From: Amphiscolops sp. MND2022
Taxonomy: Eukaryota
DNA: 64,000 bases
Direction: 5' to 3'
Assembly: GCA_964187785.1 (NCBI GenBank)
Contig: OZ076409.1
Coordinates: 77,998,001-78,062,000, forward strand
Part shown: positions 5,996-39,006 of the stretch, piece by piece
Numbering within the stretch: position 1 is the first letter of the stretch
Layout of the letters: the number at the start of each line of letters is the position of its first letter
The notes under the pieces: model-generated
The model's database searches: none
The model's input: the letters and a program-made list of their open reading frames with translations, nothing else
Told to the model about the DNA's origin: nothing
Position numbers and translations under genes: made by a program

Positions 5996-6195
5996 NNNNN
6001 NNNNNNNNNNNNNNNNNNNNNNNNNNNNNNNNNNNNNNNNNNNNNNNNNNNNNNNNNNNNNNNNNNNNNNNNNNNNNNNNNNNNNNNNNNNNNNNNNNNN
6101 NNNNNNNNNNNNNNNNNNNNNNNNNNNNNNNNNNNNNNNNNNNNNNNNNNNNNNNNNNNNNNNNNNNNNNNNNNNNNNNNNNNNNNNNNNNNNNN
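5996..6195. other. Assembly gap (N run)
   Basis: Run of N bases. Confidence 1.
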
Positions 6196-6214
6196 TGATG
6201 ACAAGCGTTATCAT

Positions 6215-6234
6215 TACAGTGGGGTAACCGGCAA
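6215..6234 (+). repeat. Left terminal inverted repeat
   Basis: TACAGTGGGGTAACCGGCAA, preceded by ATCAT. Confidence 0.92.
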
Positions 6235-6892
6235 GGCCTTCCAAAACTCGGAAAATGTTGGGCAAAAACTCGGGAATGCATGGGCGAGTTTTGTTGTTCA
6301 TAACTGAAAATCTCGGAAACGCATGGGCGAAGTCAACTAATTGTTGAACATAATCTGTCCATTCGTTTCCCACCAAGTGTGGCCTTTCAATTTGATAGAA
6401 ACTTTGAATACATATCAAAAAATGTCCGAGATATACCTAATCAACTAAAGATAAGGATTTGCCGATTATCAGAATTTTAGTAAACCCTTCCCAGGTACTT
6501 TTTTTCGAAATAAATTTGAATAATGATTATCAAGCTTCCATGCTTCTCATCATTCCACCTTAAATCGAACAACTCTCATTTAATATAATTGAATAAGCTT
6601 AAACTCATACTATATATCAATCAATAGGAAGATTAGGAGATTACAAGAAGATTAGATTGGTATCATAAGATCTTTCCGGGGGCTTGTCTTTTTGAACAAT
6701 TTAATCCTCATTACTTTTTGTTTGACTCAATTGTTTAATGTTATTGTTGTCAATTATTACAATGTCGCTCCACTACTGTTCTTTTGCCCCAAATCGAAAA
6801 CAAAATGATTCACAAGAGACTGATTCAATTAAGAAACATAATGGAAAAGATATCACAATTGTTATGGCAATGGATACAAAAAATGAATAAAT

Positions 6893-8437
6893 TTAAAAAC
6901 TAAACTGACTTCTGCAATTATTGGCTGCGGAACGACGATATTCGTCATCGCCATTTAAATTGTCCTGGAAACAATCGATAGATACTCGCACAGTTTTCAG
7001 CAGAAAATCGTTGTTAATTGAAAATTTTAGGCTTTTGATAATGTGGCAGAAAGTTTTAGGGAAGATTGGTGGGAGCATATCCCATTGTCGGCCTAGGGTA
7101 CTGTCCCATTCTGCATTTTTGTGGAACTTTTCTGAGTCAGGATCTATATGAAATTTGACTTGGTGTCCAGAACCCATTAAAAAGATATTGTTGGAAATTT
7201 CGTCAACCAAGCAAATGTCCTGATTCATCATTGTGCGTTTGGACTGGGATATCCCGACCAAACGTTTCAGCGCTGACAGGTAATGAAAAGCTCTATTCAC
7301 AGGTGAACAAGCTGCGGACAAGTCCAGAGCTTTCTGCTTCATGTAGTTTGCTTCTGTCAACACTAGCTTTACAGCTGGGTAAGTGATGGAGTAGCATCTG
7401 TCTTCTTCATCGACCAGTTTCGCCATGGCCTTCTTCATCTCCACGTCGAACCATATCTTCTCCAATTTCATCGTGAAGACCGTGCTCCTAATGTTTATCG
7501 TAACGTGGTCACCTGATAACAGAATGCGAATATTCAGTTTCATTTAGTAATAATAATTTATTAACCACTTGAGAAAGATTTATGCGACAAAGTTTCTATA
7601 AGCATGTAAATTTTTCGAGAGGACGCTCGTGGCAAAAAACTTGGTTTCAGTTTTTTTGTTTGATTTTTTTTAGTACCGTAGAAGTTAGACTAGTAATAAT
7701 CAAATTGATCATTTACCTGCTGATGCAATACCATTTTCGCAGGGTACAATGTCCAGAAGTTCGTCTTTCTCGGCAAGACTCGCAATATATGCGGCAATAT
7801 CAATTTTCTGTCTGGGAGTGGTTATAGTGGGTTCTGGTTCTGCATCTGTTTCTACTACTCTCTTTTTTTGCCGCGATGGTTGGACATCTTCGGGCTCCGA
7901 ATCAAACTCTGAAGGCTGCCTCGTGTCAGGATGAGTCCAGTTCTTCGGACGAATTTGTTCATAGTCGATGAACTGGATGTCCTTTGTGCGCCCGTCGAAG
8001 GAAACAGCCATATTTTGCTGGAATGGGTCATTCATGACAACATAACCCGAGTTCAGCAGCTTCGACTCCTCGGCATCTTTTCTAACCTCTTCCAAACTAG
8101 GAATGTCCGCTGGTGATTTCCGTGATGTCCCAGTGAAAAAGATTCTGTCCCCTAGTTGGCGCTTTCTTGGGTCGGGGATGTCAAAAACGGTTTCTGCTGG
8201 CTTCTTGGATTTCCGGCGACCGCGGACATCTTGTAATACTATACATTTTCTAACCGGCCAGCAATTTTGGGGTGTGTTGGGGGACACTTCAATTCTGTCT
8301 GATCCGAATCGCTTCACAAGTTTATCGGGCCAATTGAGGTATTTCACTCGGATTCCAAATGATCCTTCAAACCCAATGATGCGAGCATCTTCCCAAATTT
8401 TTGTTGCAGGATCCAAAACTTGAACTTGCTCTTTCAT
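6893..8437 (-). CDS. Two-exon gene with N-terminal Tudor/chromo-barrel-like domain(s); exons ~8437-7717 and 7512-6893
   Basis: Phase-1 GT-AG intron 7513-7716 joins ORFs 7709-8494 and 6893-7543 in frame; VQVLDPATKIWEDARIIG..IRVKYLNW resembles PHF20/MBT-type Royal-family barrels; start codon approximate. Confidence 0.6.
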
Positions 8438-8737
8438 ATCAAAAACACTGATGAAATCCATTTCAATTAATGAAATTAGTGCTTTATTTTTCAAGAAATT
8501 TAATTTCGTAAACGAGTATTTTCAGTATTGCATTTGCCACTAATGTTTATCAAGCAAGTTTGAGCAAATAAAATCGTTATCGGGACAAATGATTATCAAG
8601 TGAGTTTGATCGACTCAAATCGTTACATACGCATAAGATGAATTTTAAATGTCAGACGCATATTAATTAATTGTCAGACGCATTTTAAATGACAATAAAC
8701 CCCCAGACACTTTTGCACGGAACATCCAAAACGTAGC

Positions 8738-9065
8738 ACGATAAATTTATAATTTTTTGTCAAACGCTTTTCGATCAAGCAGACGCATTTCAAAATCCAC
8801 GTGAGTGTGAGCACGCTAAAACTACAATTACTCGATTTATTTCCGATATAATCAATAACATCAATAACGTAATACGATAATTTTATAATATTTTGTCAAA
8901 CGCTTTTCGATCAAGCAGACGCATTTCAAAATCCACGTGAGTGTGAACACGCTAAAACTACAATTACTCGATTTATTTCCGATATAATCAATAACATCAA
9001 TAACGTAATACGATAATTTTATAATTTTTTGTCAAACGCTTTGCGAACCAGCAGACGCATTTCAA
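8738..9065. repeat. 136-bp tandem repeat (~2.4 copies) in the divergent intergenic region
   Basis: CAAACGCTTT recurs at 8761, 8897 and 9033. Confidence 0.85.
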
Positions 9066-9170
9066 GAATGGAAACGCTAGTGTGGAAACGATAAAGTGTC
9101 AATACGCTTTTGAAAAAACAACAACTACTAGAATAACTTCCAATATAACTTTCGACGTACGACAATCAGG

Positions 9171-12100
9171 ATGACAATACACCCCGAGAAGCTTCTGCAC
9201 GATTACACTGAAACAATTGATGGAAAAAGTTTTGTGGATGCTAAAATTTTGGATGTTTTTGCTGGGCATATTATAAGAGAAAAATCTCGAAAACTGAAAA
9301 GCGCGATCGAAATAGTAATTGAAGGAACTGAATTAAAACTCGAAGATTGTGTAATAAACAAAAAAAAACTTGCTTTGTTGCAATTGGAATATTGCAAATA
9401 ATAATTGTTCGTGGTTTACAAAGTGGGTTTCCATGGACACAATTACGAAGAAGATACGTGTCCTATTTTTTCCCAAATACGCCGCAGCTAATTCCCGACT
9501 CACAACCTTTTGTCAATCCACTTCCAATGCCAACAATCCCAGTGGAGCAGTTTTCTAAACCTGAATCAGGTTTCAGTCAGAAGATGCATACAATTCTCGC
9601 AACATTAGCAGCTACAGAACAAAAGCGGATTCATACTAAGGCCCAGAAGACCTCTCTGCATCAATTTGAAGCCAAGGCTCTGGTTAAGGGTGTTTTTTCA
9701 AACTATTTATCGTACGAAAAGCTGAAGTCAGACATATTTATCTGTACTAAAACTGGTAGTTGGATAAATATGATCAACACGCTGAAAAAAACTTTCCATG
9801 TCGATGGACTGGGTCAAAAACAACTAATTCCTGGTTCTACGGCGATCAAAGAGATGTCAAAACCGATGATTTCAAAGTTTATATCCCTATTCAAACCAAA
9901 AAACACTTTCTCGGGATTCAGAATTGATTTTGTACGTGCTATCAAAGTCATGACATTCATTCTGTTCAAAGGAAGAACTGATTTGCAAGGTCTGAAAGTT
10001 GATATTTGGGGAGATGGTGTTCAAATAGGGAAAAAGGATCAAACTCGAATGGCCTTCCGTTTTCTCGAAGGAACATCTATCAGCAATCAGTCATCAGATG
10101 CACTCTTCTCTTTTGCTGTTTTCCAAGGTATGTTCTGCTATTTTGTCCTGCTGAATCTTTAAATATAATTTAGCTCTAGGTTAGCTTCGCACACTTTACA
10201 ATACGTGTTTACAGGTCACGACGGTCGTTGGTTGCTAGAGCAAAATGTCGGGTACCTGGAACTAGGTGAGCAAGATTCCTCTTGGCTTTACCAGCAGACG
10301 AAACAACTCCATGACGCCGGAGTCCTTTTAACATACAGTGGAGATCAACCATTCCTAAATCGCCTTCTCATTGGAACCTCTGTTGATCACATGGAGAGTG
10401 AAGAAAATCCATCAAAATTGCAGATGTATCTTGGGAATGACGATTCAGTTAAACCAGAAACCGTGCACGAAAAAAGTGGACATCGAGGTGATGTTCGCCT
10501 ACCATTTCGAACCACCATTCCTCATGAAAGTTTGACGTTTTTGCCAGACATCAGATGCGTTTGTCCCGACGGCACTCATGCAATAACAAGGTGTGTCGAG
10601 GGAGACATTAGAAAGTTCATGGAGTTGAAAATTCTCCAATCTGAAGATGACTCAGCTACAGTTGATTATATTAGGGAAAATTTTCAGCGCAATTTGACCG
10701 AGAGAGGTTGGAAAGAGCCTGGCTTCGAATTTGACATTGACAAACGCAACAAAAAATGTGCTCCCATTTCCCTTAGTGGCAGAGAAGCTATCACTGGCAT
10801 TGCTGATATGTACGAACTTGCTGAGGCTGGTGTTCAGCATGAACTGTTCGAAGGAGTTTTTTCCGAGAACAAGACTGTTGGAGCCTTGTCGGGTACAAAA
10901 AGTGCAAGCATGAATGTGTTGAAAAATCTTCATCCCAATTCATTCGAAAATATCGAAAGCCCATGTCAAATGAAACTTTTGGTTGCAGCTGAACTCTGGA
11001 GAAAGTCACTAAATCAGCTTACCGTGCTGATGAGGACGAGGAAGAAATTCGAAGAACAGGACTTTTCCGACTATAAATACTGGTCAGAAATCCACTATCA
11101 CATTTCGATTGTACTGTTCGATGTAAAACTAGGTTTGACACCGTACAGACTGAAACTGTGCCTGATTCCCCAGCTGTTAGAAGGAGGCTACATTGAATCA
11201 CCCTTTAACCACCTGTGCGAAGGCCCCGAAAAATCAAATCATCATGTCCATAGAGACTTTCAGCAAAAGACCATGCGAGGGGGAGGGACAGTTCGACACG
11301 CCGACCCCATGTTTCTCGAAATGTTTTTCACTTTCTGTTCTGGTCTCCGGTTTTCGACTTTGGAAGGCACAATCGACGAACAGCTCTCACTTTGCCATCA
11401 ACGGCTTTTCAATGAACCCATAGAGGTGAACCTATCTTTTTTAGACTCCCTGGGACCAACTGAGAAAGCCATCATTCCCGTTGGAAAAGTTCGAGAGAAG
11501 TCCCGCCTTTTCTTGGGTAAGGATTTTTTTTGTACCTATATGCCCACGTCCAACTTTTTTGGTTATGAAACCTAAGTGGTATAAATTTAGCGAAATTTAG
11601 TTGGATAAACCAACAATATAGTGTGAATTTTGCTTTTCTTGCGACTCCGAAATAAATGTAGTGGATCGTTGAACAAATGTTTGACTTGAGTTTTGCTGAA
11701 TATTTGTATTGCACCGCAACACGTTGACAAATATTAGTCCTAAGTTACTCGGATGAAATACTTCCTCAAAACAGCAACAGATTCCAAGTACCACTGGCGT
11801 AGTGGTTACTTCGTGCGACGTTCCGTCGTTCCGCCGCTCGTTCGCTCTTGGTATACAGGTTCGCTTCTCTGCGCCGCTGTTGGTGCAGCCTTCGGTAACC
11901 AGTGGCTGGTATTGTGTCTGGTATTGTGTGTGGTAGCCATTGGCTGGTATTACTTGCCATAGATGTCGATTGCCGGTGACGACCGCGCATTCAACAACTG
12001 TGGCAATTAGTGAGTAGATTGAGATTGGAATTCTCTCTGGCGGAGAGAGAAATCCAATCTCAATCTACTTATTTTTATGTTTTCAACTTATTATTTGCAA

Positions 12101-13138
12101 TTAGTTCTTCGCTTAACAGTGAGTTTTGAATGATGCAATTACATACCTGTTCAGAACGATCGTAGCAAAGAAAATAGAATACAGTAGTGATATTATTAAA
12201 AGCAACAAAAGACAAATTTTAGAATCAAATATCTATCAAAAAGCATTTGACTGAAGGACTTGATATGTTTTGATTGAGAAATTATATTAAAGTCTCAATG
12301 AAACCACGCTGTAAAAATAGGCGTTTTCGAAAATACTAAGTTTTTAATAATCTCACTACTGTACATGCAAAACCGTCTTAGAATTATACGGCAATAAGCA
12401 CGTTCGGCAATGGAAGGACCACCTTAGAAACCTGTTGTTACATATTCGAAGTTCGGTATATAACCAATTGTTTTCACAGAACTAAACAATATTCCGTTTG
12501 CTCCAGGATCGAGATTCTTTCTGCACGGGAAATTCAATAAAGAGCAACGAATTCAACATGAAAACCAAGATGGAAAAACTCTTGGACCCGCTGAGTGTCT
12601 CAAAAAAGTTATCAAAAAAGCGGGAGGGAAAGTTCTAGAACGAGCAGCATTGAATACTCTCCTCTCCAGACACTCCAAGTTGCCACACATTTACGTGGTT
12701 CTCCAAAATGACACAGATCTTATTAGTGCAACAACGTCGTGTGATTCTTTGCCACAAGTGACAGAAGTTATGGCCAAAGGAAAATGCAAAAAAAGGAAAC
12801 TAAATGAACCAAGTCGAACCAGTTACGTTTTACGACACTTGGCCAGTCGTGGACTTACGTTTCTATCCGTTGACTATATTTTGAAAAGTATCGAAACTTC
12901 AACAATTTTGGATGTGGAGTCTTTTGCGTTCAAACCAGGGCCAGACATCCCATCAACTTCTGTTCGTGATCATCGCAAAATTTTCCTTCTTCAGAGGAAT
13001 CCCGAACTACAAAACACAACTTCAGCTATAACATCGGTACTTCGTAAACGACGAGAAATGCTGAAGAAGCGCGAACAAGAAAAAATGAATGACGCTCAGA
13101 AAGAACACGATGAATCATCCTCAGACTCATCAGACTGA
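9171..13138 (+). CDS. RAG1/Transib-like DDE transposase with C-terminal BRCT; exons 9171-10127 (frameshift in A9 at 9360-9368), 10215-11516, 12480-13138
   Basis: Two phase-1 GT-AG introns (10128-10214, 11517-12479) keep frame; motifs WGDG (D 10013), YSGDQPFL (D 10343), CPDGTH, LTPY, CEGPEKSNH (E 11228) are collinear with RAG1 SCDG, GYDEK, IDALH, TNY, SEGNESGNK; last exon FFLHG..LKKVIKKAGGKV..IYVV..VDYILKSIE is BRCT-like. Confidence 0.75.
12013..12069. repeat. Near-perfect hairpin (26-bp stem, 5-nt loop) in transposase intron 2
   Basis: AGTAGATTGAGATTGGA-ATTCTCTCT / AGAGAGAAA-TCCAATCTCAATCTACT, one mismatch. Confidence 0.9.
12180..12363. mobile_element. Tc1/mariner-type MITE (TA-flanked)
   Basis: TA-CAGTAGTGATATTATT ... 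AATAATCTCACTACTG-TA; relative at 21657-21897. Confidence 0.75.
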
Positions 13139-13697
13139 GAATCATTTGATAATCATAATTGATAAATCGTGAAAACTTTGATTCGAACAATAATAAATTA
13201 TTTTTACCTGTTTTTATTGTCAAAATTTAATTGAATCATTCGAATTGTTTTAAACAAATTCAAAATAGAAACGTACCAAAAAGTAGCAGCGCAAAATACT
13301 AAGTAAAAACCGAAAAGAAAGAATAAAACCAAATCTTTCAAAGACCAAGAACTGGAATTCAAAATTCTAAAGTATTACTACAGTAAACTGCGAAATTGCA
13401 TCAAGTGCTGAAATACTTCGCTGAAAACAAGTTTCGAGATTTAATAATAATATATATCAATACAATGAAATAAAATAATAAAGGTTAAGAATATGTAAAA
13501 CAAAAAATTTTATCTCGAAAATGGTTTTCAACGAACTAATCAATCAAGAGACCAAAAAGTGTTTCGACCGAGTTTTTTGTCAACAATTTGAAATAGGTGA
13601 GTTAATGATATGTTCCTGTTTGGGAAATTGAGAGACATGTACCGGTTGATAGTTTGCACAAATTTTCGTCGATTGCTCTTGGATCGGCTGCCTTTTT

Positions 13698-16600
13698 TTA
13701 ATTGAAGCTGAGGACATGTAGTGCTTTGGCCAGAAGCTCCCATTTCATTAGCCTACAGTTCCCAATGGCACTCTCTAGAATAACTTTCGTCATTAACGAT
13801 AAGAAATGTGGGAAACATTTCTCAAGAGGTTCATCATTGTCCCGTTCCCTCTGGTAAACAGTCAAAGTCGTGTCTAAAAACATATATGCACAAGCATTAG
13901 TAAAACTGCCTCGAACCCATAGAAGAAGTAAAACCCGAATTTTTTTGAGAAATTAACTTAATCCGATTTTAATTTTAAAAATGAAGATTTTTTCGATTTT
14001 TTTGCTTTTTACCTTTTATCTCTTCTAACAAACAACTGAGAAACAATTATATGAAAACTGAATTTCAAAATTACCTAGATCACAGATGGTGAGAAAATTG
14101 AATCCCACGGCCACGCTGTCCGCACAGGTTCTGACCATATGTATCATGCCTGCTGGCATGATCATTGACTCGCCGCCTGTTATCGTCACTTTAAACACTT
14201 GACTTTGGAGGTGGGTGTCACTTGGTAGGAAAACATTTTGTTTTGTTGCCTCAATGCACCAATTCTCGAGAATTTCTTGGTTTCGAACTGTTCCAGGAAT
14301 CATGAAAAACTCTTTTTTACCGTGAAGAAGATGGTAAAAGACGCTGGTATTCGTGTAGTCAACATGCCAAGGTGTAATGGAACCTTTTTGACTGAGAAGA
14401 ATATAGCAATTTTGCTCCAGCTCAAAATTGAATAAATGAGACACTGAAAGTTCTTTAACTGCCGTTGGTACATCGAAATGCAAGTTCTTTGTGAGACTGG
14501 AGCTAAGATCAAGGACATTCATTGGGCCGCTCATAGCTCCAAACTCAATGGCATTTACAAAATCTTTTCCTGAGAGTGTCAAACACAGGAGTTTTTGCAG
14601 CTGAAATAGACATGTGTTGTATATGAAAAAAGAATACACTTCGAAGATCTACAATTTTGGTTTTAAAATATAAAAACCCTAATATTTTTTAAATGTTCGG
14701 TTTTCATTGGTGAAGTTAAAAAGACGAAGCCAAAAACGAACACTGACAGGTTTGTACATTCGGACAGATAATTGTACATCTTCTGCGTGTAGACAGTCTT
14801 CGAAGATGTTTCTTCGCGCTCCAAAGTTGATGTTGGGCAATTTCATACCATCCATATGTCCTCGAACAATACAGGCTCTTTTCCGCTGCAGCTCCTCCTC
14901 TATTTCGCTGCTGGTAACATTGGTGCAGCAAACTCGCATCTCGGACCCGGAAGATTCTCTGATTACATCCAGCAGCTCATGATGCTCTGCTTCATCCACA
15001 AATGCAACCAGAGAAACTTCTTCATCTTCTGCTTGAACCTGTTCGTAGCTGTTGGAATCTGAAACGAAAATTGTCAATATCATAATAAAGTTTTTTAAAT
15101 GATTGGTAGATGTTTTTCGAATACTTTTGATGAGTATCAGTGGATTCGTTTGGCAAGTAGTAAAATTGGTATGTAGAAATTTTGATATAGGTAAAACAAT
15201 AGGATTTTATTGTACCTTGGGGATTGTGTGTGGCTACTTCTTCACTTTCGTCTTCCTCACGGTTCTCTTCCTGGAGGGATTCTTCATTGCTGTCAGAATC
15301 TGAAACAAACATCGTCAAAATCAATTTAACGTTATTGAGATGATTGGTTGTTTGTCGAATATTTTCGATACGTAATATTGATATAGGTAAACAAGTCGAA
15401 GTCGTGTCTAAAAACACATATGCACAAGTATTAGTAAAACTGCCTTGAACACATGGATGGAACAAAATCCGATTTTTTTAAAAATTAACTCAATCCGATT
15501 TTAATTTTAAAAGTAAAGATTTTTTGATTTTTTTTGCTTTTTACCTTTCATCTCTTTTAACAAATAACTGAGAAACAATATTTTATGAAAACTGAATTTT
15601 ATTGTACCTTGGCGAACGTGTGTGGCTACTTCTTCTTCACTTTCGTCTTCCTCACAGGTCTCTTCCTGAAGGGCTTCATTGCTGTCGGAATCTGAAACAA
15701 AAATCGTCAAAATTATTATAAAATTATTGAGATTTGTGGATGTTTTTCGAATATTCTCGATAAGTATCAGTGGAATCGTTTGACAAGTAGGCAAATTGGT
15801 GTAGAAAAATTGATATAAGTAAAACGATAGGATTTTATTGTACCTTGGCGAACGTGTGTGGCTACTTCTTCTTCACTTTCGTCTTCCTCACAGGTCTCTT
15901 CCTGGAGGGCTTCTTCATCGTTGTCAGAATCTGAAACAAAAATCGTCAAAATCATAATAAAGTTAGAGAAGATTGGATGTTTTTCGGATATTTTCGATAA
16001 GTATCAGTGGAATCGTTTGACAAGTAGTCAAATTGGTGTAGAAAAAATGATATAGGTAAAACAATAGGATTTTATTGTACCTTGGCGAACGTGTGTGGCT
16101 ACTTCTTTTTCACTTTCGTCTTCCTCACAGATCTCTTCCTGGAGGGCTTCTTCATCGTTGTCAGAATCTGAAACAAAAGTCGTCAAAATCATAATAAAGT
16201 TAGAGAAGATTGGATGTTTTTCGGATATTTTCGATAAGTATCAGTGGAATCGTTTGACAAGTAGTCAAATTGGTGTAGAAAAAATGATATAGGTAAAACA
16301 ATAGGATTTTATTGTGCCTTGGCGAACGTGTGTGGCTACTTTTTCACTTTCATCTTCTTGACGGTTCTCTTCTTGGAGGGCTTCATTGCTGTCGGAATCT
16401 GAAACAAAAATCGTCAAAATCATAATAAAGTTAGAGAAGATTGGATGTTTTTCGGATATTTTCGATAAGTATCAGTGGAATCGTTTGACAAGTAGTCAAA
16501 TTGGTGTAGAAAAATTGATATAGGTAAAACAATAGGATTTTATTGTACCTTGGCGAACGTGTGTGGCTACTTTTTCACTTTCATCTTCTTGACGGTTCTC

Positions 16601-19150
16601 TTCTTGGAGAGCTTCATTGCTGTCGGAATCTGAAACAAAAATCGTCAAAATCATTATAATGTTAGAGAAGATTGGATGTTTTTCGGATATTTTCGATAAG
16701 TATCAGTGGAATCGTTTGACAAGTAGTTCACAAATTGGTGTAGAAAAATTGATATAGGAAAAACAATAGGATTTTATTATACCTTGGCGAACGTGTGTGG
16801 CTACTTTTTCACTTGCATCTTCTTGACGGTTCTCTTCTTGGAGGGCTTCTCCATTGCTGTCAGAATCTGAAACAAAAATCGTCAAAATCATTATAAAGTT
16901 ATTGAGAAGATTGGATGTTTTTCGGATATTTTCGATAAGTATCAGTGGAATCGTTTGACAAGTAGTTCACAAATTGGTGTAGAAAAATTGATATAGGAAA
17001 AACAATAGGATTTTATTGTACCTTGGCGAACGTGTGTGGCTACTTTTTCACTTTCATCTTCTTGACGGTTCTCTTCTTGGAGAGCTTCATTGCTGTCGGA
17101 ATCTGAAACAAAAATCGTCAAAATCATTATAATGTTAGAGAAGATTGGATGTTTTTCGGATATTTTCGATAAGTATCAGTGGAATCGTTTGACAAGTAGT
17201 TCACAAATTGGTGTAGAAAAATTGATATAGGAAAAACAATAGGATTTTATTATACCTTGGCGAACGTGTGTGGCTACTTTTTCACTTGCATCTTCTTGAC
17301 GGTTCTCTTCTTGGAGGGCTTCTCCATTGCTGTCGGAATCTGAAACAAAAATCGTCAAAATCATTATAAAGTTATTGAGAAGATTTGTGGATGTTTTTCG
17401 AATATTTTCGATAAGTATCAGTGAAATCGTTTGGCAAGTAGTCAAACTGGTATGTCGAAAAATTGATATAAGTAAAACGATAGGATTTTATTGTACCTTG
17501 GCGAACGTGTGTGGCTACTTCTTCTTCACTTTCGTCTTCTTGACGGTTCTCTTCTTGGGGAAAGTGTGTGACTACTTCTTCTTCACTTTCGTCTTCCTCA
17601 TAGGTCTCCTCCTGGAGGGCTTCATTGCTGTCGGAATCTGAAACAAAAATCGTCAAAATCATCATAAAGTTATTGAGAAGATTTGTGGATGTTTTTCGAA
17701 TATTTTCGATAAGTATCAGTGGAATCGTTTGGCAAGTAGTCAAACTGGTATGTCGAAAAATTGATATGAGTAAAACGATAGGATTTTATTGTACCTTGGC
17801 GAACGTGTGTGGCTACTTCTTCTTCACTTTCGTCTTCTTGACGGTTCTCTTCTTGGGGAAAGTGTGTGACTACTTCTTCTTCACTTTCGTCTTCCTCATA
17901 GGTCTCCTCCTGGAGGGCTTCATTGCTGTCGGAATCTGAAACAAAAATCGTCAAAATCATTAAAAAGTTATTGAGAAGATTTGTGGATGTTTTTCGAATA
18001 TTTTCGATAAGTATCAGTGGAATCGTTTGGCAAGTAGTCAAACTGGTATGTCGAAAAATTGATATGAGTAAAACGATAGGATTTTATTGTACCTTGGCGA
18101 ACGTGTGTGGCTACTTCTTCTTCACTTTCGTCTTCTTGACGGTTCTCTTCTTGGGGAAAGTGTGTGACTACTTCTTCTTCACTTTCGTCTTCCTCATAGG
18201 TCTCCTCCTGGAGGGCTTCATTGCTGTCGGAATCTGAAACAAAAATCGTCAAAATCATCATAAAGTTATTGAGAAGATTTGTGGATGTTTTTCGAATATT
18301 TTCGATAAGTATCAGTGGAATCGTTTGGCAAGTAGTCAAACTGGTATGTCGAAAAATTGATATAAGTAAAACGATAGGATTTTATTGTACCTTGGCGAAC
18401 GTGTGTGGCTACTTCTTCTTCACTTTCGTCTTCCTCACAGGTCTCTTCCTGGAGGGCTTCTTCATCGCTGTCAGAATCTGGTTCGATGTGAACTCGACGG
18501 TACCGACGTGACGTCCTTCTCTGTTCTCTTCTTCTTCTCGAATCCATCCTCGCTTGCCATCGTGGGTGTTCGATCTTCTTCTTTGGGGTCCCTTTGATTT
18601 TAATCAGGTCTTTGATTCGATGGGAATAACCTTTCCCCTCCCGCCGTCTTTTTTCCGACCAGCTGTACTCTCCTGGCACATTGCCTTTGGGCTTTTTTTT
18701 AAGAACAGCGGATTCCCCTTTAAGATAAAACGATTTGTATTTTTGCTTCAGGCAATCGTAAGCAGAACTTTCCTTGCACAATTCCTCGATGTTTTCTGGT
18801 GTTGGTTCCAACAAATTTCCTGGGTACCATTCCTCCCTTTGCAACTCAAACACTTTCAGGGTGCAAGTTCTTCCGAGGGAGTGTTGAGCGGTCCTGTGAT
18901 AGCTAAAGAACGGTCCTCCGTCTTTCTCGCCGCATCCACAAAAGCGACAAATAAAATTTGCCCGACTGTAAATTTTTTGTGCAATGCAGGTGAACTCCAG
19001 CTGGTGTTCTTCAACAGGTCTCTTCCTTGGTGCCCAGTCTTTGTACATGTGCCTCTGGCACGCAACTTTTTCGCTGAATTTTCTCCGGCATTCTGAAACA
19101 CATATTCCGATTAGTATTGGTGAAAAACATGTTTGAAAAAAATTCGACAT
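13698..19150 (-). CDS. Multi-exon JmjC histone demethylase-like gene (KDM2/KDM7 type) with N-terminal Cys/His region and acidic repeat exons
   Basis: Exons 19150-~18391, 12 repeat exons, 15058-14748, 14600-14075, 13873-13698 with consistent phases; YILLSQKGSITPWHVDYTNTSVFYHLLHGKKEFFMIP..MPAGMIHMVRT..DSVAVGFNFL keeps HxD..H and the 2-OG Lys; a possible frameshift may extend the C-terminus to 13540. Confidence 0.8.
15059..18480 (-). repeat. Tandem array of intron+exon units (mostly ~231-241 bp, three of 298 bp), each exon coding DSDSNEALQEE(T/N)xxEDESEEEVATHVRQ-like acidic peptides
   Basis: Each unit has TTTCAG|ATTC acceptor and CCAAG|GTA donor (one GC donor near 16316); example exon 15691-15608 is 84 nt, phase 1-1. 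Confidence 0.88.
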
Positions 19151-19707
19151 TTTAAATTCTATTTCAGATATCCGAACAGATCATCAAAATGATAATGCCA
19201 TTTAAGACTTGGAAACGCATGGGCAATTTGAAACGCAGAAATACATGGCTTTTTCATTGCTTTTCATCACTCGGAAACGGATGGGCGAACGTTCAATTCA
19301 TTTTATGCCAATTAGCTTACGTTATTTCATACTTCGGTTTTTATCCCCTATTTTGAAACGATAATTGAAGGTTCGCACGTCATCAGGTAATTATCACCAC
19401 AGTTGAGTTGAAAAGCGTCCTTAAATGAGCTCATCTTCATGCAAATCTAAATAGCACATCCGCAAAGCTATTACCAACGGTATGTACTACTTTTTTCAAT
19501 AATTAAATAATTCATTATCAGAAATGAATAATTATCATATATGTACTATTTAATACGAAGATCACCATTTTTCTTTAATTATAATATACCACAGTTGATT
19601 GACGAAGCGTCTTTGAATTAGTTCGAATTTGGATCGCTCAAGGAAAGGATTGAGCACTCACCATTCAATCCAAACAGTAGCTAGAAAACAGTCTCTTTTA
19701 CATAACG

Positions 19708-21075
19708 ATGAACCCTCCTCAACATGAGAAATCTCTCTCTTACACTGTCTTGGGGACTAGCCCGGCTGTGACAAATTCTGTTGCTCCAAACGAAACATTT
19801 GAAAGATTTTCGACTCCATTTAAACCGAATGAAAGCAACTTTGCATACTACATGAGTACTCCCTTGGATCAATCTAGTTCGACACAACAGTTGTATGGAT
19901 CACCCAGTGTGTCATCTAAAAGCTGGCCAAGTTTCACCCAAGTTGAACAAAGGATATTTTCACAAATCTCTAATATAGAAGGTGTGAATTATGAAGATAG
20001 CCCTTCGGACGTCTCGATAATGGTACAAGCTCAACTTGCTGCAAATCAAATGACACCTCTGTTAATCAACACTGCAAATCAACTGAACCACACTCCGAAT
20101 GACAGTACGACGAATCAACTGAGCCACACTCCAAGTGACAGTACGACGAATCAACTGAGCCACACACCGAGTGACAGTACGACGAATCAACGGAGCCACA
20201 CCCCAAGTGACAGTACGAGCCACACTCCGAGTGACATCATGGCAAGCCAACTGAGCCGTTCTTCAAGTGATATCGCGGCAAGTCAGCTGAGCCAAACTCC
20301 GAGTGATATCATGGCAAGTCAGCTGAGCCGTTCTTGCAACGACACCTTGGCAAACATGGAAAGATGCCAACAGGAGATAGCGAACAAGCGGAAACTTAAC
20401 CATTATGATGAGGAAAACCATGGCCCAAAAAGTAAACGATGTGTTCCCAAAAACTATGAGAAAAATTTGCGAGAAATTACCCCAGTGCACCTAACATTAT
20501 GCACAACTGTTGAAGCGCGACTCTTGTCAGACCTTTATGACATAATGAAGCAATTCAAATTCGCAAAATCTCTAACCAGCATTGACAAAACCAATTTGTT
20601 TGGGGACCTCATTGCTTATTTGCTGGAATTTTCTATTCCAAAGTGTAGAGATCGCAAAATTTTGAGCATTACAACTCATGCCGTTTTACAAATGGTCCCT
20701 CAAATTCAGCACAATAGAAGTTCTAACTCAAGTGACTTGTTAGTCTTGCAAATTGAAGATGAAGCTGGGTACTTGGACAGCTTCAGAATTCCTCACATTG
20801 TTGGAGAAGCAATGTTAATATATTTTGAAGCTGTACGACCGTACTTCATAAAACCTGAAGGTATCGACCAGAAAAAAAGGTTCATGCAGTCACCCAGTCA
20901 AGGGATACCACCATATTACGTCATGACGGAGCCATTCTTTGTCAACAGCTGGGGAAAAACACAATTCAAAGTGCGGAACATAAGAAATCGGATTGAACAG
21001 GTAACTAATCAAATACTGTTTGATAAGAATTACTTGACTCACTTTGCAATACCCCTTACTTCCAAGATGACTTGA
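19708..21075 (+). CDS. Ser/Thr-rich N-terminus with 12-aa repeats plus truncated tyrosine-recombinase-like domain
   Basis: NQLSHTPSDSTT repeats (~20078-20345); LIAYLL..KCRDRKILSIT, AMLIYFEAVRP and PFFVNSWGK resemble the N-terminal half of a YR catalytic domain; no HxxR/H/Y half. Confidence 0.5.
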   Translation: MNPPQHEKSLSYTVLGTSPAVTNSVAPNETFERFSTPFKPNESNFAYYMSTPLDQSSSTQQLYGSPSVSSKSWPSFTQVEQRIFSQISNIEGVNYEDSPSDVSIMVQAQLAANQMTPLLINTANQLNHTPNDSTTNQLSHTPSDSTTNQLSHTPSDSTTNQRSHTPSDSTSHTPSDIMASQLSRSSSDIAASQLSQTPSDIMASQLSRSCNDTLANMERCQQEIANKRKLNHYDEENHGPKSKRCVPKNYEKNLREITPVHLTLCTTVEARLLSDLYDIMKQFKFAKSLTSIDKTNLFGDLIAYLLEFSIPKCRDRKILSITTHAVLQMVPQIQHNRSSNSSDLLVLQIEDEAGYLDSFRIPHIVGEAMLIYFEAVRPYFIKPEGIDQKKRFMQSPSQGIPPYYVMTEPFFVNSWGKTQFKVRNIRNRIEQVTNQILFDKNYLTHFAIPLTSKMT

Positions 21076-21569
21076 AAGATAGATGCGAAAACCAATTCTG
21101 ACCAGGCGTCTGCGATGTTGTCTATCCTACAATGGGTCGAGGAATAATCGCGACCAAACCATTTAACAAGGATGACGTTATTTTTGACTACCACGGACAT
21201 GTAGAAGAAAACACGAACAACGTCGACTACTACTGCAGTCTGGACCCAGAGAACCGCAAGCCAGAATACTGCATCGAGGTTAAAACAAGGCCGGGAAGAA
21301 TTATTGATGCAACCTCGGAAATATGCCCCATCCACAACGATGGCAGAAGGTGCCTTGCTCGATTGTGCAATTACTCAAGTACCTTTGATGGTGGAAAGAC
21401 CAACCCAGCTTGTAACATGAAACTGGTCGAATTGAAATGTACATACTTGAAAAATAATCCGCGTTACGTGCTACTTATTGCAAAGCGGAAAATTGAACCC
21501 CTGGAGCAGCTGATGTTTGATTACATGGACCCCGAAGCCAATAGAATTTTCGGCGGTAATGCCGAGTAA
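21063..21569 (+). pseudogene. SET-domain methyltransferase (PR-Set7/SETD8-like), probably disrupted
   Basis: GRGIIATKPFNKDDVIFDYHG, IDAT, ARLCNYS, CNMK, IEPLEQLMFDY; in-frame TGA at 21099-21101 in Q-F-*-P-G-V upstream of ATG 21132. Confidence 0.8.
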
Positions 21570-21656
21570 AACCATTGATAAACTCGAACTTTGTTTTTAA
21601 CTTATCAGTTTTTATATAATTTTTGTTGGAATATTAGTCATTGTCATCTAGTCAAA

Positions 21657-21897
21657 TACAGTGGTGATATTTTTAAAAGCAACAAAGCCGCTTCAAAGTC
21701 TGCGGCAGGTGAAAAAAAAACTTCAAAGTCATCCCAAAACATGTATTTTCGAAAAAATCTTCAAACAAACATATTTGTAAACTAGATAAAAATCTAGAAT
21801 ACGTTTATTTTTATAAGTTTTCATAAACCACTGCCGTTTTAGAGATATTCGATTTTGAGATTTGCCTTTTGATGCTCTCAATAATATCACTACTGTA
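21657..21897. mobile_element. Tc1/mariner-type MITE, same family as 12180-12363
   Basis: TA-CAGTGGTGATATT ... AATATCACTACTG-TA; shared AAAAGCAACAAA. Confidence 0.75.
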
Positions 21898-22400
21898 TAT
21901 TATCTTCGGGTTTTGTTTTCTTTGTCAATTTTGAATTCAAAATATGCCAATGGATATTCCAAAAAGCAGATATCGATTAACACTCTCAAGGAATCATATA
22001 AAAGAACTAACTGGGGCAGACGGTCGGATCGTTGAGGAGGCTGATTTGATCCCTATCAGTCAAAATGTGCTCCTGGAGAGTGACTTGTTCATCATCGGTC
22101 TCAACTTCCTCGTTTCCTGCAGCAACGTAGTCAAACGTGAAACATTCGGATTTAGTTTTCCTATTATTCATGTGTTCAAATAGTGGTTGATGAACTGCGG
22201 GCATTAGTCAAAACATAGACACATGTAAGATTTCAAAAAGTTCATGTTAAAAACTAACTCTGACAGACGGTTGGCTCATCTCTGTCAGTCGAAACGCCGC
22301 GGTGTTCTTGAAGAACTGCTTCGGTACTGGCTTCTCTATCATGATGAAGGCTTGGCCTAAATTTGGGCTGAAAAAAACAACAAATTTGCCAAATTTACAT

Positions 22401-22449
22401 TAAAGTGGGGTAACCGACAAGGCCTTCCAAAACTCGGGAATCCATGGGC
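22401..22449 (+). repeat. Internal degenerate copy of the transposon left end
   Basis: TAAAGTGGGGTAACCGACAAGGCCTTCCAAAACTCGG matches 6215-6251 with two substitutions, one in the heptamer. Confidence 0.9.
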
Positions 22450-22567
22450 ACGTTTTGATATCCGTAACCGAATTTCTGGCAACCAAATGAGCAAAACTTT
22501 TGAGATTAGAATAACAGTGTATTTCTATATAAGCATTATATTTAATTTTTTTTGACTAAGAAATATC

Positions 22568-22926
22568 GGTGAATTCCCAAATAACATAAGAGCAAATAAC
22601 ATAAAAACAAAATTAGTTTCAAATAACATTAAAATGAAATGGGTTTCACTAAACATAAAAATAAAATTGTTAATGAGAAAATATCAGTGGTCAAAAGCAT
22701 ACACAATTCAAAAGATTCACTGAAAAAAGTGTGGAAATTACAGATAAAATTTTCTGAGTTCGATCGTTTTACCGGGTATTCGGTTTTATTTTTATGTTCT
22801 TTGACACTAATTTTGTTTTTATGTTATTTGCATTCATTTGTATGTTTAGTGAAACTCATTTCAATTTTGTGTTTTGAAACTAATTTTATTTTTGTTGTTT
22901 GTTCTTATGTTATTTAGGAAATCACC
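22568..22926. mobile_element. Foldback MITE with long imperfect TIRs
   Basis: GGTGAATTCCCAAATAACATAAGA ... TCTTATGTTATTTAGGAAATCACC; inner GTTTCACTAAACATA / TATGTTTAGTGAAAC; TSD not clear. Confidence 0.65.
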
Positions 22927-24581
22927 AACGTTTATCAAGAAAAAATATTGAAAGCAATTATTAAAACCAAAGTATTAAAAAGCCAACCCTGAAAGTTAAT
23001 AAATCAACTGATTAACTCTAACCTGTTTCAAATGGTCCGGTAAGTCGTCTAGTTCAATGTCCAGCTTCCGGATCCGTAAAAGTAACGTTTTTAACATGGC
23101 AATGACAATTGAAAACAAATGACTAACTTTTACACGCACAGTATCAATATGACCTCATCGGAATATGCGACGAAAGAATTTCGTCCAATCAGAAGCGAGT
23201 ATTCGGTTTCGTTCATCAAGATTACATGTAGTTTGATCAACAGAAAAACAAATAAACTTTTGCTCCCGTATTACAACAATCTTACTGATTTACTTGTGCA
23301 CTTAAATCACTAAAATGGAAGTGAAATTACTTTGAACATTTAGTAACATTCCACTTCTTGGAGCGTTGACTTTAACAACTGATAAGAACGTTCACACTTT
23401 GAAAAAATGGTGAATATCAGAACAATCATTTGATCAATTCTCAATAAATAAATCAATGACGTTTCACAGGATACCAACTCAATTAATAAATATGAAAAAA
23501 TCAATTGTTTTGTTATGATTGAAAAAACCTAAACTCATTTTATATATCAACTATACTGTTCTTTTGCCCAAAACAAAGAATCCTGATTTTTGATGATTAG
23601 ATTAATTGTCAATAAATAAATCAATGACGATTCACAGGATACCAATTAAATTAATAAATATCAAACAACCATATATATCAATCAAGGTGAATAGTTGAAT
23701 AAAGTTGTTTCTGTAGTAAGTGTACAACTATCAAACAATTTTTTGTTATGATTGAAAAAACTTAAACTCGTATTATATATCAACTATACTGTTCTTTTGC
23801 CCCAAAACAAAAACGATTCACAGAATACTGATTTAATAAGTTCCAAAAAAATGAAATACATCAAAATTACATACTAACACATCATAATATACCTACACAT
23901 CATAATACATCAAAATATTTGTAATTATCATAATTGCCCGATCATAATTGCCATTATATACAAAAGAAAAGAATAGTTAAGTATTAAACAGTATTAAAAT
24001 AAAGTAAACTAAATTTTATCACGATAATAATCTTGCAGTGATTGGCCGGAACGAAAAAATTATTAGGGTTATATTCCTGCAGATATCGGCTTCGGAACGA
24101 AGATTTTCGTCATTGCCAATTTTATTTGTCCCGCCTAAAATACTGGGAAAATAATAGTTGAGCTGATATTTCTTAGTCAAAAAAAATTAAGAATTTAATT
24201 TGATAACTAAATTAATTTTAACTGAATTAATTTGATAAACCAAAAACTGAACACTGAAAATCTGCATGTGTAGATAAATAATGAGACACTTCCATGTCAA
24301 AGCAGTGTATTGAATTGGCCGAAGCGAGTGGCAGATCTATCTAAATCTTGAAATTCTTTGAGCAAGCGATGGAATTACTTGCCCAATTTACTCTCATCAA
24401 CGAGTATGCATGGGCAATTAAAGCCATCGCTCCTGCAAAGAAACTCAATACGTAGCTTGTGCTTCCTCGGAAATCAATAGGCAACAGTTTTGGCTGCGAA
24501 ACGAATGGGCATTTTTGGCCCATACATTCATTCATGTCCATCATTTTCCGAGCCGCACAACGAGTAAAATCTGCATTTTCG

Positions 24582-24601
24582 TTGCCGGTTACCCCACTGT
24601 A
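24582..24601 (-). repeat. Right terminal inverted repeat
   Basis: TTGCCGGTTACCCCACTGTA is the exact reverse complement of 6215-6234, followed by ATCAT. Confidence 0.92.
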
Positions 24602-24603
24602 AT

Positions 24604-25245
24604 CATGTATTGGAAGACGGCATCTCAACTTTACCCCTTGGTCACTACATGATCAGAGATGTGCATGTTGAGCAAGACATTGTGGATGAACCAGAATGGG
24701 GATATGAAGAGGAAGAGATACCATCAAGTCCCACATGGGATGAACTGAACGGCAATGATCCGCAAGTCACAATCTCCCAAATATTCCCAGATGAGGCTCC
24801 GATGACGGCAAATGCCCCTCTGTCATCACCATTGCGTGTGCGAGTAAGTGAGGATGAACCAATCTCATTAACTCAACTGATGGAAGCATGGTCGCCTCCC
24901 GATCCGGGCATGCACCAAAGAGAGTACAGTGATTCCGAGCTGGAAGACCAGTTCAGTAACATGGACGAATCAGTTGAGGAGCGAAGCCCTCCGAGAAATC
25001 CCTTTATTGACGATGAGGCAGAGGAAGCATCAGATACAGGTGAAACTGCAGACGATGATGAAGAGTCAGACCCTAAGGACTGCGTTATAGTCGAGACACT
25101 AACAGAAGACGAGGCGAACGCCATTGAAGACTTGGAATACCTGATTGATTTCGACAATTGGTTCAGCGACGATGAATTTGTGAACCGCATCAAAAGAGTG
25201 AAAAGGAGACGGATGGAGATTGTGAGCGACAGCGAGAGCGAATAA
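24604..25245 (+). pseudogene. 3' part of a highly acidic ORF interrupted by the transposon
   Basis: Removing the element and one TSD gives the open frame DDKRYH-VLEDGISTLPLGHY..; D/E-rich, RNPFIDDEAEE, basic KRVKRRR near the end. Confidence 0.6.
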
Positions 25246-25489
25246 GACTTCATGTTATTTCATATGCTACTAGCTAGTCTGATGTGTGCAAAGCTTATTG
25301 TTTTCTTTGTATTGTTCTCAAGTACCTGTTGAGTGAACTTTCAAGTAGTTATACGCGCTTCAGTAAATTCAGAAATTCAGTCTTGTTTTGCTCTCATTTT
25401 ATTGGCCGACGCGTTGTCTAATAGCATAGAAGATTCACCAAAAGATGTAGAATATATTTCTCCAAATGGAAAACGAATGGACAGATGGT

Positions 25490-27965
25490 TAAAAAACAGA
25501 TTGTAGGCCTGAAAGGACTCCCCCGCAGGCCATATTGCGGCCCCATAGGCGTAAAATGGAAATTGCTTGGCTATAAATGCAAAATACTAGGCCTACATGC
25601 CGCCCCCGTAGGTCTAATCGCGGCCCCATACCCGTTAAATGGAAAAAAGTTGGCTGTAAAAGCAAAATACTGCGCTTTAACGCGGCCCCCGCAGGCCTAA
25701 TCGTGGCCCCATAGCAGTAAAATGGAAATTGCTCTGCTTAAAAAGCCAAATACTGGGCTTTAACGCCGCCCCCGCAGGTCCAATTGCGGTCCCATAAGCG
25801 TAAAATGGAAATTGCTTAGCTCAAAAAGCAAAATACTTGGCTTTATTGCCTCCCCCGCAGGCCTTACTGCGGCCCCACAACCGTAGAATGGAAAAAGCTT
25901 GGCTTAAAAAGCAAAATACTGGGCTTTAACGCCGCCCCCGCAGGCCCAATTGCGGTCCCATAAGCGTAGAATGGAAAAAGCTTGGCTTAAAACCAAAATA
26001 CTAGCCTTACATGCCGCCCCGCAGGCCTTACTGCGGCCCCATAACCGTAGAATGGAAAAAGCTTGGCTTAAAAACCAAAATACTGGGCTTAAAAGCCGCC
26101 GCGCCCGCAGGCTTTACTGCGGCCCCATAAGCGTAGAATGGAAAATGCTTGGCTTGAAAAGGACAATACTGGGCTGTAACGCCGCCCCCGCAGGCCTAAT
26201 CGCGCCCCCAAAAGCGTAAAATGGAAAATGCTTAGCTCAAAAAGCAAAATACTGGGCTTTAATGCCGCCCCCGCAGGCCTAATCGCGGCCCCATAATCAT
26301 AAAATGGAAATTGCTTGGCTTAAAATTAAAAAGCAAAATACTGGGCTGTAACGCTGCCCCCGCAGGCCTAAAAGCGCCCCCACAAGCGTAAAATGGAAAA
26401 AGGTTGGCTGTAAAAGCAGAATACTTGGCTTTAATGCAGCCCCGCAGGCTCAATCGCGGCCCCATAACCGTAGAAGGGACTAAACTTGGCTGTAAAAGTA
26501 AAATACTGGGCTTTATTGCCTCCCCCGCAGGCCTTACTGCGGCCCGATAACCGTAGAATGGAAAAAGCTTGGCTTAAAACCAAAATACTAGGCTTACATG
26601 CCGCCCCGCAGGCCTTATCGCGGCCCCTTAACCGTAGAATGTAAAAAGCTTGGCTTAAAAACCAAAATATTGGGCTTAAAAGCCGCCCCCGCAGGCTTTA
26701 CTGCGGCCCCATAGGCGTAAAATTGAAAAAGCGCGGCTATAAAAGCAAAATATTAGGCTTTAATGCCGGCCCCGCAGGCCTTACTGCGGCCCCATAAGCG
26801 TAAAATGGGAGAAACATGGCTATAAAAGCAAAATACTGGGCTTTAATGCCTCCCCCACAGGTCTTACTGCGGCCCCATAAGCGTAGAATGGAAAAAGCTT
26901 GGCTTAAAACCAAAATACTAGCCTTACATGCCGCCCCGCAGGCCTTACTGCGGCCCCATAACCGTAGAATGGAAAAAGCTTGGCTTAAAAACCAAAATAC
27001 TGGGCTTAAAAGCCGCCGCGCCCGCAGGCTTTACTGCGGCCCCATAAGCGTAGAATGGAAAATGCTTGGCTTGAAAAGGACAATACTGGGCTGTAACGCC
27101 GCCCCCGCAGGCCTAATCGCGCCCCCAAAAGCGTAAAATGGAAAATGCTTAGCTCAAAAAGCAAAATACTGGGCTTTAATGCCGCCCCCGCAGGCCTAAT
27201 CGCGGCCCCATAATCATAAAATGGAAATTGCTTGGCTTAAAATTAAAAAGCAAAATACTGGGCTGTAACGCTGCCCCCGCAGGCCTAAAAGCGCCCCCAC
27301 AAGCGTAAAATGGAAAAAGGTTGGCTGTAAAAGCAGAATACTTGGCTTTAATGCAGCCCCGCAGGCTCAATCGCGGCCCCATAACCGTAGAAGGGACTAA
27401 ACTTGGCTGTAAAAGTAAAATACTGGGCTTTATTGCCTCCCCCGCAGGCCTTACTGCGGCCCCATAACCGTAGAATGGAAAAAGCTTGGCTTAAAACCAA
27501 AATACTAGGCTTACATGCCGCCCCGCAGGCCTTATCGCGGCCCCTTAACCGTAGAATGTAAAAAAGCTTGGCTTAAAAACCAAAATATTGGGCTTAAAAG
27601 CCGCCCCCGCAGGCTTTACTGCGGCCCCATAGGCGTAAAATTGAAAAAGCGCGGCTATAAAAGCAAAATATTAGGCTTTAATGCCGGCCCCGCAGGCCTT
27701 ACTGCGGCCCCATAAGCGTAAAATGGGAGAAACATGGCTATAAAAGCAAAATACTGGGCTTTAATGCCTCCCCCACAGGTCTTACTGCGGCCCCATAGGC
27801 GTAAAATTGAAAAAGCGAGGCTATAAAAGCAGAATACTAGGCTTACATGCCGCCCCGCAGGCCTTACTGCGGCCCCATAGGCGTAAAATTGAAAAAGCGT
27901 GGCTATAAAAGCAAATTACTAGGCTTACATGCCGCCCCGCAGGCCTTACTGCGGCCCGTTAGCAG
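25490..27965. repeat. ~83-bp satellite (~30 monomers) with 917-bp higher-order repeat
   Basis: Monomer AAAAGCAAAATACTGGGCTTTAATGCCGCCCCCGCAGGCCTTACTGCGGCCCCATAAGCGTAGAATGGAAAAAGCTTGGCTT; identical blocks at 26259 and 27176. Confidence 0.92.
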
Positions 27966-28292
27966 TAGAATGGACGAAAGATGCATAATATATCAAAATC
28001 TTTGGCTCATATAATGATTGTGTATGCTCATATGGTTGACTGTAGCAATAAATTGAAATAAAGTGAAATGTACGTACCAGTGTGCAGTGCTCTCTCTTCC
28101 GTGGTTCTTCTTCTTTTGGTTCTTTTTTGTAACCACCTCCCAAAAGCCTTAAAATACCTTAAACCTGATGCGGGGTAAAAACCGTGGAATCGGAAACACC
28201 GCAAGGATGACCTTTCACACATCCACAGTCCTTACCCAGACCGTTCTCACACTTAATCTAATTCTTACCAGAAAAAAAGTGAGAAGGTTGCT

Positions 28293-28838: not shown

Positions 28839-29318
28839 TTTAAGTCGTTCTTCTACAGAAAATTATCATTATTTTTTTGGTTAGAAGGGTAATCTTGTTT
28901 TGAAAAAAGTTTGAAAAGTGTTTTGAGAAATGTACTAGAATTAAAATCTTCGCAAAAAGTCAAAGTAACTAACCTTAGTTTGATGATCAAGAAATGAGAC
29001 GATAGGGAAAAATTTTCTCCGGGATTGTTCACTGCTACCAAGATTCCGAAGGTACCAATTCAATTCAACGGATATCAGTACACAAATCTTCAATGCATAT
29101 CAGGATGTAACATTTAATTCCTAGGAGAAACTTTTGAAAAATTTCTAAGAAAAGAAAATCTTTTCAAAGAAGCGTAATAACCACTTGATGATTTTCCGTT
29201 TAATTTCAATAGTAACATTGAAATATGAGTTCATATTAATCCTGATGTGCATTGAGATACTTATTCGTTTGCTAATGCTAAGCTGGGTAATTTATTCAAT
29301 ATTTCCGGAAAACGTAGA

Positions 29319-39002: not shown

Positions 39003-39006
39003 TTTT

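Follow-up and report, generated by a model that had tools for sequence, protein, structure and literature searches.

What becomes of a gene in which a whole intron, together with the exon beside it, has been repeated in tandem? The question is raised by a 64-kb stretch of contig OZ076409.1 from Amphiscolops sp. MND2022 (hereafter the window, whose positions are used for all coordinates). Between 15059 and 18480, on the minus strand, it contains such an array, within a gene for a predicted JmjC-domain protein that is itself carried by an 18.4-kb DNA transposon (Table 1). The reading favored here, with a probability of roughly two in three, is that the repeat exons would be spliced in, and that the acidic tract they encode would be a tolerated, weakly constrained spacer between a Cys/His-rich domain and a JmjC domain of the KDM2/KDM7 type.

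Array architecture and the spliced gene model

The splice sites of the array, 13 donors and 13 acceptors, are in register throughout. Ten of the donors read GTACAA, two GTATAA, and one GCACAA (at 16317); all 13 acceptors end in TTTCAG. The donor motif is matched 13 times across the window, vs. not at all in 100 shuffles. The 12 internal exons, of 141, 141, 141, 84, 81, 84, 81, 81, 87, 87, 84, and 84 nt, are without exception in phase 1-1 and stop-free in the acidic frame (27–47 codons), and the 87-nt tail of the exon preceding them is a 13th copy of the repeat exon. The introns measure 157 nt (four in succession), 153, 155, 153, 150 (three in succession), 152, 308, and 157 nt; five of the 13 have lengths divisible by three, vs. 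12 of the 12 exons. An initial annotation, made from the letters alone, had described 12 internal units keeping acceptor and donor around a phase 1-1 exon of this length, one of them with a GC donor, and this is borne out. It had also proposed comparing the conservation of splice sites and frame with intron divergence: sites are kept in 13 of 13 cases, and exon lengths as above, with a mean divergence among units of 7.0% in exons vs. 6.3% in introns (intron 12 left out).

Tandem Repeats Finder reports periods of 237, 473, and 298 bp over the array (scores 2185–3153), which comprises 10 distinct exon and 12 distinct intron sequences. Four of the nine shorter exons alternate as a 473-bp dimer. 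The three 298-bp units each consist of a 141-nt exon and a 157-nt intron; these exons had been described as internally doubled, and while the lengths agree, in each of them an 84-nt module is joined at CCAAG to 57 nt from the end of a different unit type, which looks like a fusion of two unit types, not a self-duplication. Intron 12, of 308 nt, contains 214 nt copied, at 87% identity, from the gene's last intron together with its acceptor and about 21 nt of exon; the same insertion is found in sibling copies, and adds a possible cryptic acceptor.

Spliced through canonical sites, the model is open from 19092 for 962 residues (a first exon lies outside it), which comprise, in order, the Cys/His-rich domain, a basic stretch, the acidic array, the JmjC domain, and a short tail. 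Together, the tail of the preceding exon and the 12 internal exons encode 420 residues, of which 167 (40%) are Asp or Glu and 27 Lys or Arg, for a net charge of about −140; the adjoining N-terminal part is basic, with 50 Lys/Arg vs. 25 Asp/Glu in 204 residues. If all 12 exons are skipped the frame is also open, with 570 residues and an intact JmjC domain. Most of the repeat exons are probably spliced in, to give a predicted protein of about 960 residues or more vs. about 570 with all skipped: the array introns are short, and the donors and acceptors hardly differ from the one pair that even a transcript skipping all 12 exons would use.

As an alternative, the array might be a minisatellite at the DNA level, spliced out for the most part as a single long intron, or the gene might be silent; either way the acidic tract would never be made. 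The intact 570-residue product would accord with this, as would exons diverging as fast as introns. It would, however, require that 12 acceptors and 12 donors matching those in use be ignored, and off-frame lengths or stops, which would then be free to appear, occur in none of the 10 exon types (a weak test); this explanation is judged rather improbable.

Two other interpretations of the upstream exon were considered and rejected. The first was an earlier donor, leaving the array intronic: this exon has nine phase-1 GT sites, the most donor-like of those before the array being at 18630, but residues after 18630 are still conserved in distant relatives. The second, an alternative frame across the basic stretch, is ruled out, as relatives support the open frame.

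Retention of an array intron would introduce an in-frame stop in 12 of the 13 cases and a frameshift in the 13th, which would be consistent with an array that is mildly harmful, its expansion lowering output through mis-splicing. The unit count might also be partly an assembly artefact: collapse and expansion errors occur at identical sequences such as the three long exons. In either form this is very improbable, in view of the number of distinct exons and introns, the occurrence of the same unit types on many contigs, and the many identical copies that mark out the element family in which the array lies.

The JmjC protein is, on the evidence of its predicted sequence, a KDM2/KDM7-type demethylase homologue. 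The domain is recognized by Pfam (JmjC, E 1e-9), and all 14 of its matches among solved structures are to KDM2A, PHF8, KDM7A/KDM7, or PHF2 (best E 6e-18). Of 19 copies and relatives checked, 15 have the iron- and 2-oxoglutarate-binding motifs (H-x-D, K, H), and the remaining four are truncated or frameshifted. The borders of the JmjC exon are supported by a relative at 47% identity, with which the alignment spans the modelled exon from its opening to its final codons. No longer JmjC relatives were found among 169 candidates (a weak search), and in a profile-free search of 1.84 billion representatives close relatives appeared only as single-exon frames. The N-terminal Cys/His domain has no Pfam match; its best Atlas score, 0.80, is to HNH-type clusters (a lead only), and its fold model was unusable (predicted local distance difference test, pLDDT, 35). 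Neither a PHD nor a CXXC domain was matched by Pfam in the upstream exon or its relative, the first exon being outside the model.

Origin of the array and constraint on the acidic tract

The array is best read as a functional splice junction duplicated in tandem. Around CAG-ATTC, 11 of 13 bases agree, in frame, between the beginnings of the exon tail and of the post-array exon. The ancestral gene would have had an exon with an acidic tail, a phase-1 intron, and then the JmjC exons; mispairing at the CAG-ATTC match, as a first step, would have copied the tail and intron with donor and acceptor intact. An exon with a length of 3n and phase 1-1 would thereby arise automatically. Later unequal crossovers and conversion could then have produced the blocks of similar units, the 473-bp dimer, the fused 141-nt exon (by in-frame loss of one intron, as two unit types were joined), and a unit type particular to each subfamily, while intron 12 would have received its copy of the gene's last intron. 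The present pattern, with blocks of similar units, a repeated 473-bp dimer, and a last unit that is the most divergent, fits unequal crossover; a tree of 12 array introns (intron 12 left out) has no strongly supported fork. The earlier suggestion that unequal crossover can alter unit number without breaking the frame is supported by the phase 1-1 exons of length 3n, the blocks, the dimer, the divergent last unit, and a junction in a sibling copy, described next; exon skipping, suggested alongside it, would also preserve the frame.

Database proteins (designated by P numbers, with up to 15 members of each cluster listed) show the array to be a family trait, of which a second subfamily has its own homogenised version. 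The gene calls in the database ignore introns, so the tails of these proteins show what comes after an exon. In subfamily 2 (89% identical), 15 of the 20 members are listed, and in five of these the frame continues through the first intron; what it enters is another repeat exon in all five, and in none the JmjC-side exon. P0253 and P0264 start inside the array, and show that subfamily 2 has at least three units, with a unit sequence of its own. Within the window's own subfamily, the first exon of P0244 begins like unit 0 and ends like a long unit, which would fit the loss of at least one unit. At the array position, a distant relative (47%) has a Thr-rich repeat within an exon, in eight length classes of 39–76 residues with 3–9 Asp/Glu.

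There is little sign that the sequence of the tract matters. Exon variants within the array include seven synonymous and 16 non-synonymous changes and no stops, with no departure from neutrality (P 0.12–0.39). Between subfamilies, the repeat unit is 76% identical over 29 residues vs. 94–96% for the flanking domains (one pair each). These tests are weak in both directions, neither proving translation nor excluding a role based on charge, since such a role depends on composition and not on sequence and so escapes them.

A charge-based role is the substance of another possibility, that the tract is a tunable acidic linker: variable inclusion of exons would change its charge and reach, and it would bind histones or mask the basic stretch, regulating the JmjC enzyme. 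Histone-binding acidic tracts are known, the protein is a homologue of chromatin enzymes, the tract's large negative charge lies beside a basic N-terminal part, and acidic multi-unit arrays are retained in two subfamilies. Set against this are the lack of any sign of constraint, the Thr-rich repeat with few Asp/Glu at this position in the distant relative, and the chance that the acidity comes merely from a GAA-rich tail that happened to duplicate. Such a linker is judged unlikely. Histone binding in particular, put forward in the initial annotation, finds no support in substitutions that look neutral, a unit less conserved than its flanks, and a Thr-rich counterpart. The same applies to a likeness drawn there to the acidic hinge of RAG2. 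In RAG2 the acidic linker connects a kelch propeller to a PHD finger; the tract here lies between the Cys/His and JmjC domains, and neither kelch nor PHD was matched among the 18 window frames scanned.

Several observations weigh against the reading of the tract as a spliced-in, weakly constrained spacer. The GTACAA donors of the repeat are far from the usual donor consensus. Deletions span the first donor in two database copies of the window's subfamily (P0238 and P0245), although these may represent decay or assembly error. Exons downstream of the Thr-rich repeat in the distant relative could be acidic. The selection tests are low-powered, and the absence of stops has a P of 0.31–0.42 under neutrality. 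The 3-nt indels sit in GAA runs, where slippage alone yields multiples of three, and about half of the indels in array introns are multiples of three as well.

Table 1. Features of the JmjC gene, its repeat array, and the element that carries them (window positions).
Feature	Position	Strand	Remarks
Tandem array of 13 units (exon copy plus intron), with 12 internal phase 1-1 exons	15059..18477	-	
3′ tail of upstream exon, 13th repeat-exon copy	18391..18477	-	starts at CAG-ATTC match shared with start of post-array exon
Three identical 141-nt exons, in 298-bp units	17497..18233	-	18233-18093, 17935-17795, 17637-17497
Nine 81-87-nt exons, first five	15216..17339	-	17339-17256, 17102-17022, 16866-16783, 16629-16549, 16398-16318
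Nine 81-87-nt exons, last four	15216..17339	-	16167-16081, 15930-15844, 15691-15608, 15299-15216
Array intron 9, GC donor	16168..16317	-	
Insertion within array intron 12	15386..15599	-	87% copy of 13853-14065
Upstream exon, Cys/His-rich domain and basic stretch	18391..19092	-	frame backed by relatives, 42-50% identity
Post-array exon, phase 1 to 0, leading into JmjC	14748..15058	-	open reading frame identical on 27 contigs
JmjC exon, KDM2/KDM7 type	14075..14600	-	H-x-D, K, and distal H intact
Predicted last coding exon of JmjC gene	13698..13873	-	model; end computed from translation
Host element, 18.4-kb DNA transposon	6212..24604	.	short inverted ends 6212-6234 and 24582-24604; repeated subterminal motifs
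RAG1/Transib-like transposase, one predicted intron	9332..11575	+	intron at ~10128-10214
BRCT-domain frame, probably last transposase exon	12464..13138	+	fused in relatives P0003, P0004, P0014
Gene divergent from JmjC gene: 455-residue frame with 36-nt repeats, then SETD8/PR-Set7-like SET domain	19681..21569	+	SET domain at 21102-21569
Two further cargo frames, no family assigned	6893..8521	-	6893-7543 and 7709-8521; multi-copy with element

The host transposon and its other genes

The flanks of the host element are the two sides of one position in a B DNA polymerase gene, presumably of Maverick type, which fixes the element's ends; on the left, 15 bases of flank precede an assembly gap (5996-6196). 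The simplest reading of the insertion is a 2-bp target duplication, AT, which fits the flanks of intact relatives without changes; an alternative 5-bp direct repeat also flanks the ends, requiring three extra target bases (both from one insertion). The left end starts CATTACAG, and this copy has CA at its left end and TC at its right. A right end at an 83-bp minisatellite and CAC end near 28090 was ruled out, because that DNA comes after the polymerase tail. The flanking stretch itself (24607-28090) consists of the 3′ end of the presumed Maverick-type gene, followed by the minisatellite in 29 copies, with a possible terminus near 28090.

Identical frames are found on 10 contigs for a transposase variant (P0184), 12 for the upstream exon, 13 for the JmjC exon, 27 for the post-array exon, and 28 for the long repeat unit, although these contigs may stem from more than one assembly. 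Among 14 listed transposase contigs, matched by size, five are common with the list for the upstream exon, five with that for JmjC, four with that for the repeat units, and none with a Maverick control. From its sequence, then, the element is a young, multi-copy one. This gives the array a use apart from any function: with dozens of near-identical transposon copies bearing the gene, the birth, fusion, and loss of introns by unequal crossover may be traced copy by copy within one genome.

A motif is repeated near both ends of the element and between its two divergent cargo genes; the two copies between the JmjC and SET genes (19208-19286) are possibly binding sites for the transposase or a cargo protein. 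Other internal repeats include a 93% copy of the left end (22398-22440), which with the right end could define a 2.2-kb non-autonomous sub-element; a perfect 26-bp inverted pair (22542-22567 and 24165-24190); two related short elements with TACAGT...ACTGTA ends (12180-12363 and 21657-21897), presumably resembling miniature inverted-repeat transposable elements, the first of them between the transposase and BRCT frames; and a 136-bp repeat in 2.5 copies (8721-9065), between the transposase gene and the divergent frames at 6893-8521.

The transposase is likened to RAG1 mainly through its predicted fold. When its structural model (pLDDT 52) was compared with 48,161 chains, BbRAGL, RAG1, and HzTransib took ranks 1–4 and 6, with Z scores of 8.4 for BbRAGL (root-mean-square deviation 4.8, 180 residues aligned), 7.2 and 7.1 for RAG1, and 7.0 for HzTransib; unrelated chains scored up to 6.8. 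Atlas matches the protein to the RAG1 family at 0.91–0.93, and acidic residues presumably occupy RAG1-like motif positions in it. No sequence match to RAG1 was found in the PDB, and sequence and Foldseek searches gave no placement. Neither transposase frame contains a CxxC motif, and the sole Hx4H is not conserved in 15 relatives. A metagenome scan yielded eight short loci with relatives of the transposase at 33–46%; the two longest encode a transposase with a BRCT-like tail, with no JmjC gene within the 4.4–4.6 kb available, and no match was found in the viral contigs searched. For the distant relative, the JmjC member P0176 and the transposase member P0200 both list a longest contig of 8560 bases, which hints at linkage there.

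Head to head with the JmjC gene is one with a SET domain, for which all 14 PDB matches are to SETD8/KMT5A. In this copy the frame before the SET domain ends unlike its siblings (at 21040-21101; 455 residues vs. mostly 449), with a stop just ahead of the SET frame; the gene may be damaged or contain an intron here. The 36-nt repeats upstream of the SET domain lie within an exon (20077-20353); the sibling P0351 is without two of the units. The JmjC gene rides on the transposon, probably to modify chromatin together with the SET gene, going by what is known of these families.

Outside the element, the window includes a Pao-type long terminal repeat (LTR) retrotransposon (38515-47075; Pfam Peptidase_A17, DUF1759, and DUF5641) with 100%-identical LTR segments, the 5′ LTR being split by about 190 bp; two oppositely oriented reverse-transcriptase frames (429-5789), beside the assembly gap; and, at 28293-28862, 30398-31642, and 51683-55762, a ribosomal S5-like frame free of introns, along with widely spaced frames whose APAF-1-like and beta-propeller matches are weak and which may be one interrupted host gene.

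Comparison with known systems

Arrays of exon plus intron are already known. In the SmPoMuc genes of Schistosoma mansoni, a multigene family, a small exon and its flanking introns are repeated in tandem, with 1–20 units per gene and introns >94% identical; unequal crossover and conversion have been proposed, and transcript variation shown (PMC2576457). The SmPoMuc unit is 1 kb with a 27-nt exon and belongs to a secreted mucin, whereas the array here, known from DNA, belongs to a nuclear enzyme homologue inside a transposon. Argiope MaSp2 genes have repeated exon-intron pairs with small, homogenised introns (mean 97.6%), and some alternate as a two-unit repeat (PMC9779670), in which they resemble the 473-bp dimer; the MaSp2 repeat is the structural core of silk, whereas here it is a linker without sign of constraint. 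The DNA-level features of these systems (splice sites, homogenised introns, symmetric exons) are present, and the array appears to work as the SmPoMuc and MaSp2 arrays do. In recently duplicated human genes, variable repeats of minisatellite scale alter protein length and exon-intron structure (PMC2812944), but there new introns come from cryptic splice sites in exonic repeats, while here an existing intron belongs to the unit.

Less familiar is an element carrying both JmjC and SET genes, and the 18.4-kb host is probably of more interest than the repeat array. It is like Transib and RAG1 in its RAG1/Transib-type fold match (from a low-confidence model), the CA of its left end, and its short duplication (PMC1131882, PMC12730594). 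Transib elements, however, are 3–4 kb long, with a CACAATG-like heptamer and a 5-bp duplication, where this one is 18.4 kb, without the heptamer, and with a duplication most simply read as 2 bp (PMC1131882); its transposase, with a C-terminal BRCT domain, has neither the C(2)C nor the H(3-4)H zinc motif (PMC1131882, PMC12730594), and the element bears several cargo genes. Given the heptamer, the size, and the zinc motifs, it is not filed as a Transib, though it works, so far as can be predicted, like a Transib/RAG1-type transposon. The CMCT clade mostly has 5′-CA..TG-3′ ends and duplications of 2–5 bp (Kojima 2025; PMC12730594); here the ends are CA and TC, with 2 bp duplicated and without the zinc motif. 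One speculative and unlikely extension would have a new lineage of large RAG1-fold transposons, lacking the usual zinc ligands and with a BRCT tail, managing its own chromatin through a histone writer-eraser pair, the SETD8-like SET and KDM2/7-like JmjC proteins, the array being an acidic arm, tunable by splicing or recombination, that sets the eraser's reach or activity.

The JmjC domain resembles KDM2A, PHF8, and KDM7A in keeping the H-x-D, K, and H residues; the gene is unlike theirs in having a Cys/His domain and repeat array upstream, with no PHD or CXXC domain found. A literature search, with most subscription journals and Repbase Reports outside its scope, listed no publication on JmjC cargo in a DNA transposon. 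Chromatin-enzyme cargo of other kinds has been described, including SET domains in HarbingerS and MuDR elements of Phytophthora, TET/JBP in fungal elements, and Vandal in plants, and epigenetic modifiers on DNA transposons are presumed to counter silencing (PMC12730594). The present element differs from these in bearing a JmjC demethylase homologue and a SETD8-like gene head to head. If both enzymes are active, it would be a case, open to testing, of a transposon that counters silencing with histone-modifying tools of its own, in parallel to the fungal TET/JBP cargo.

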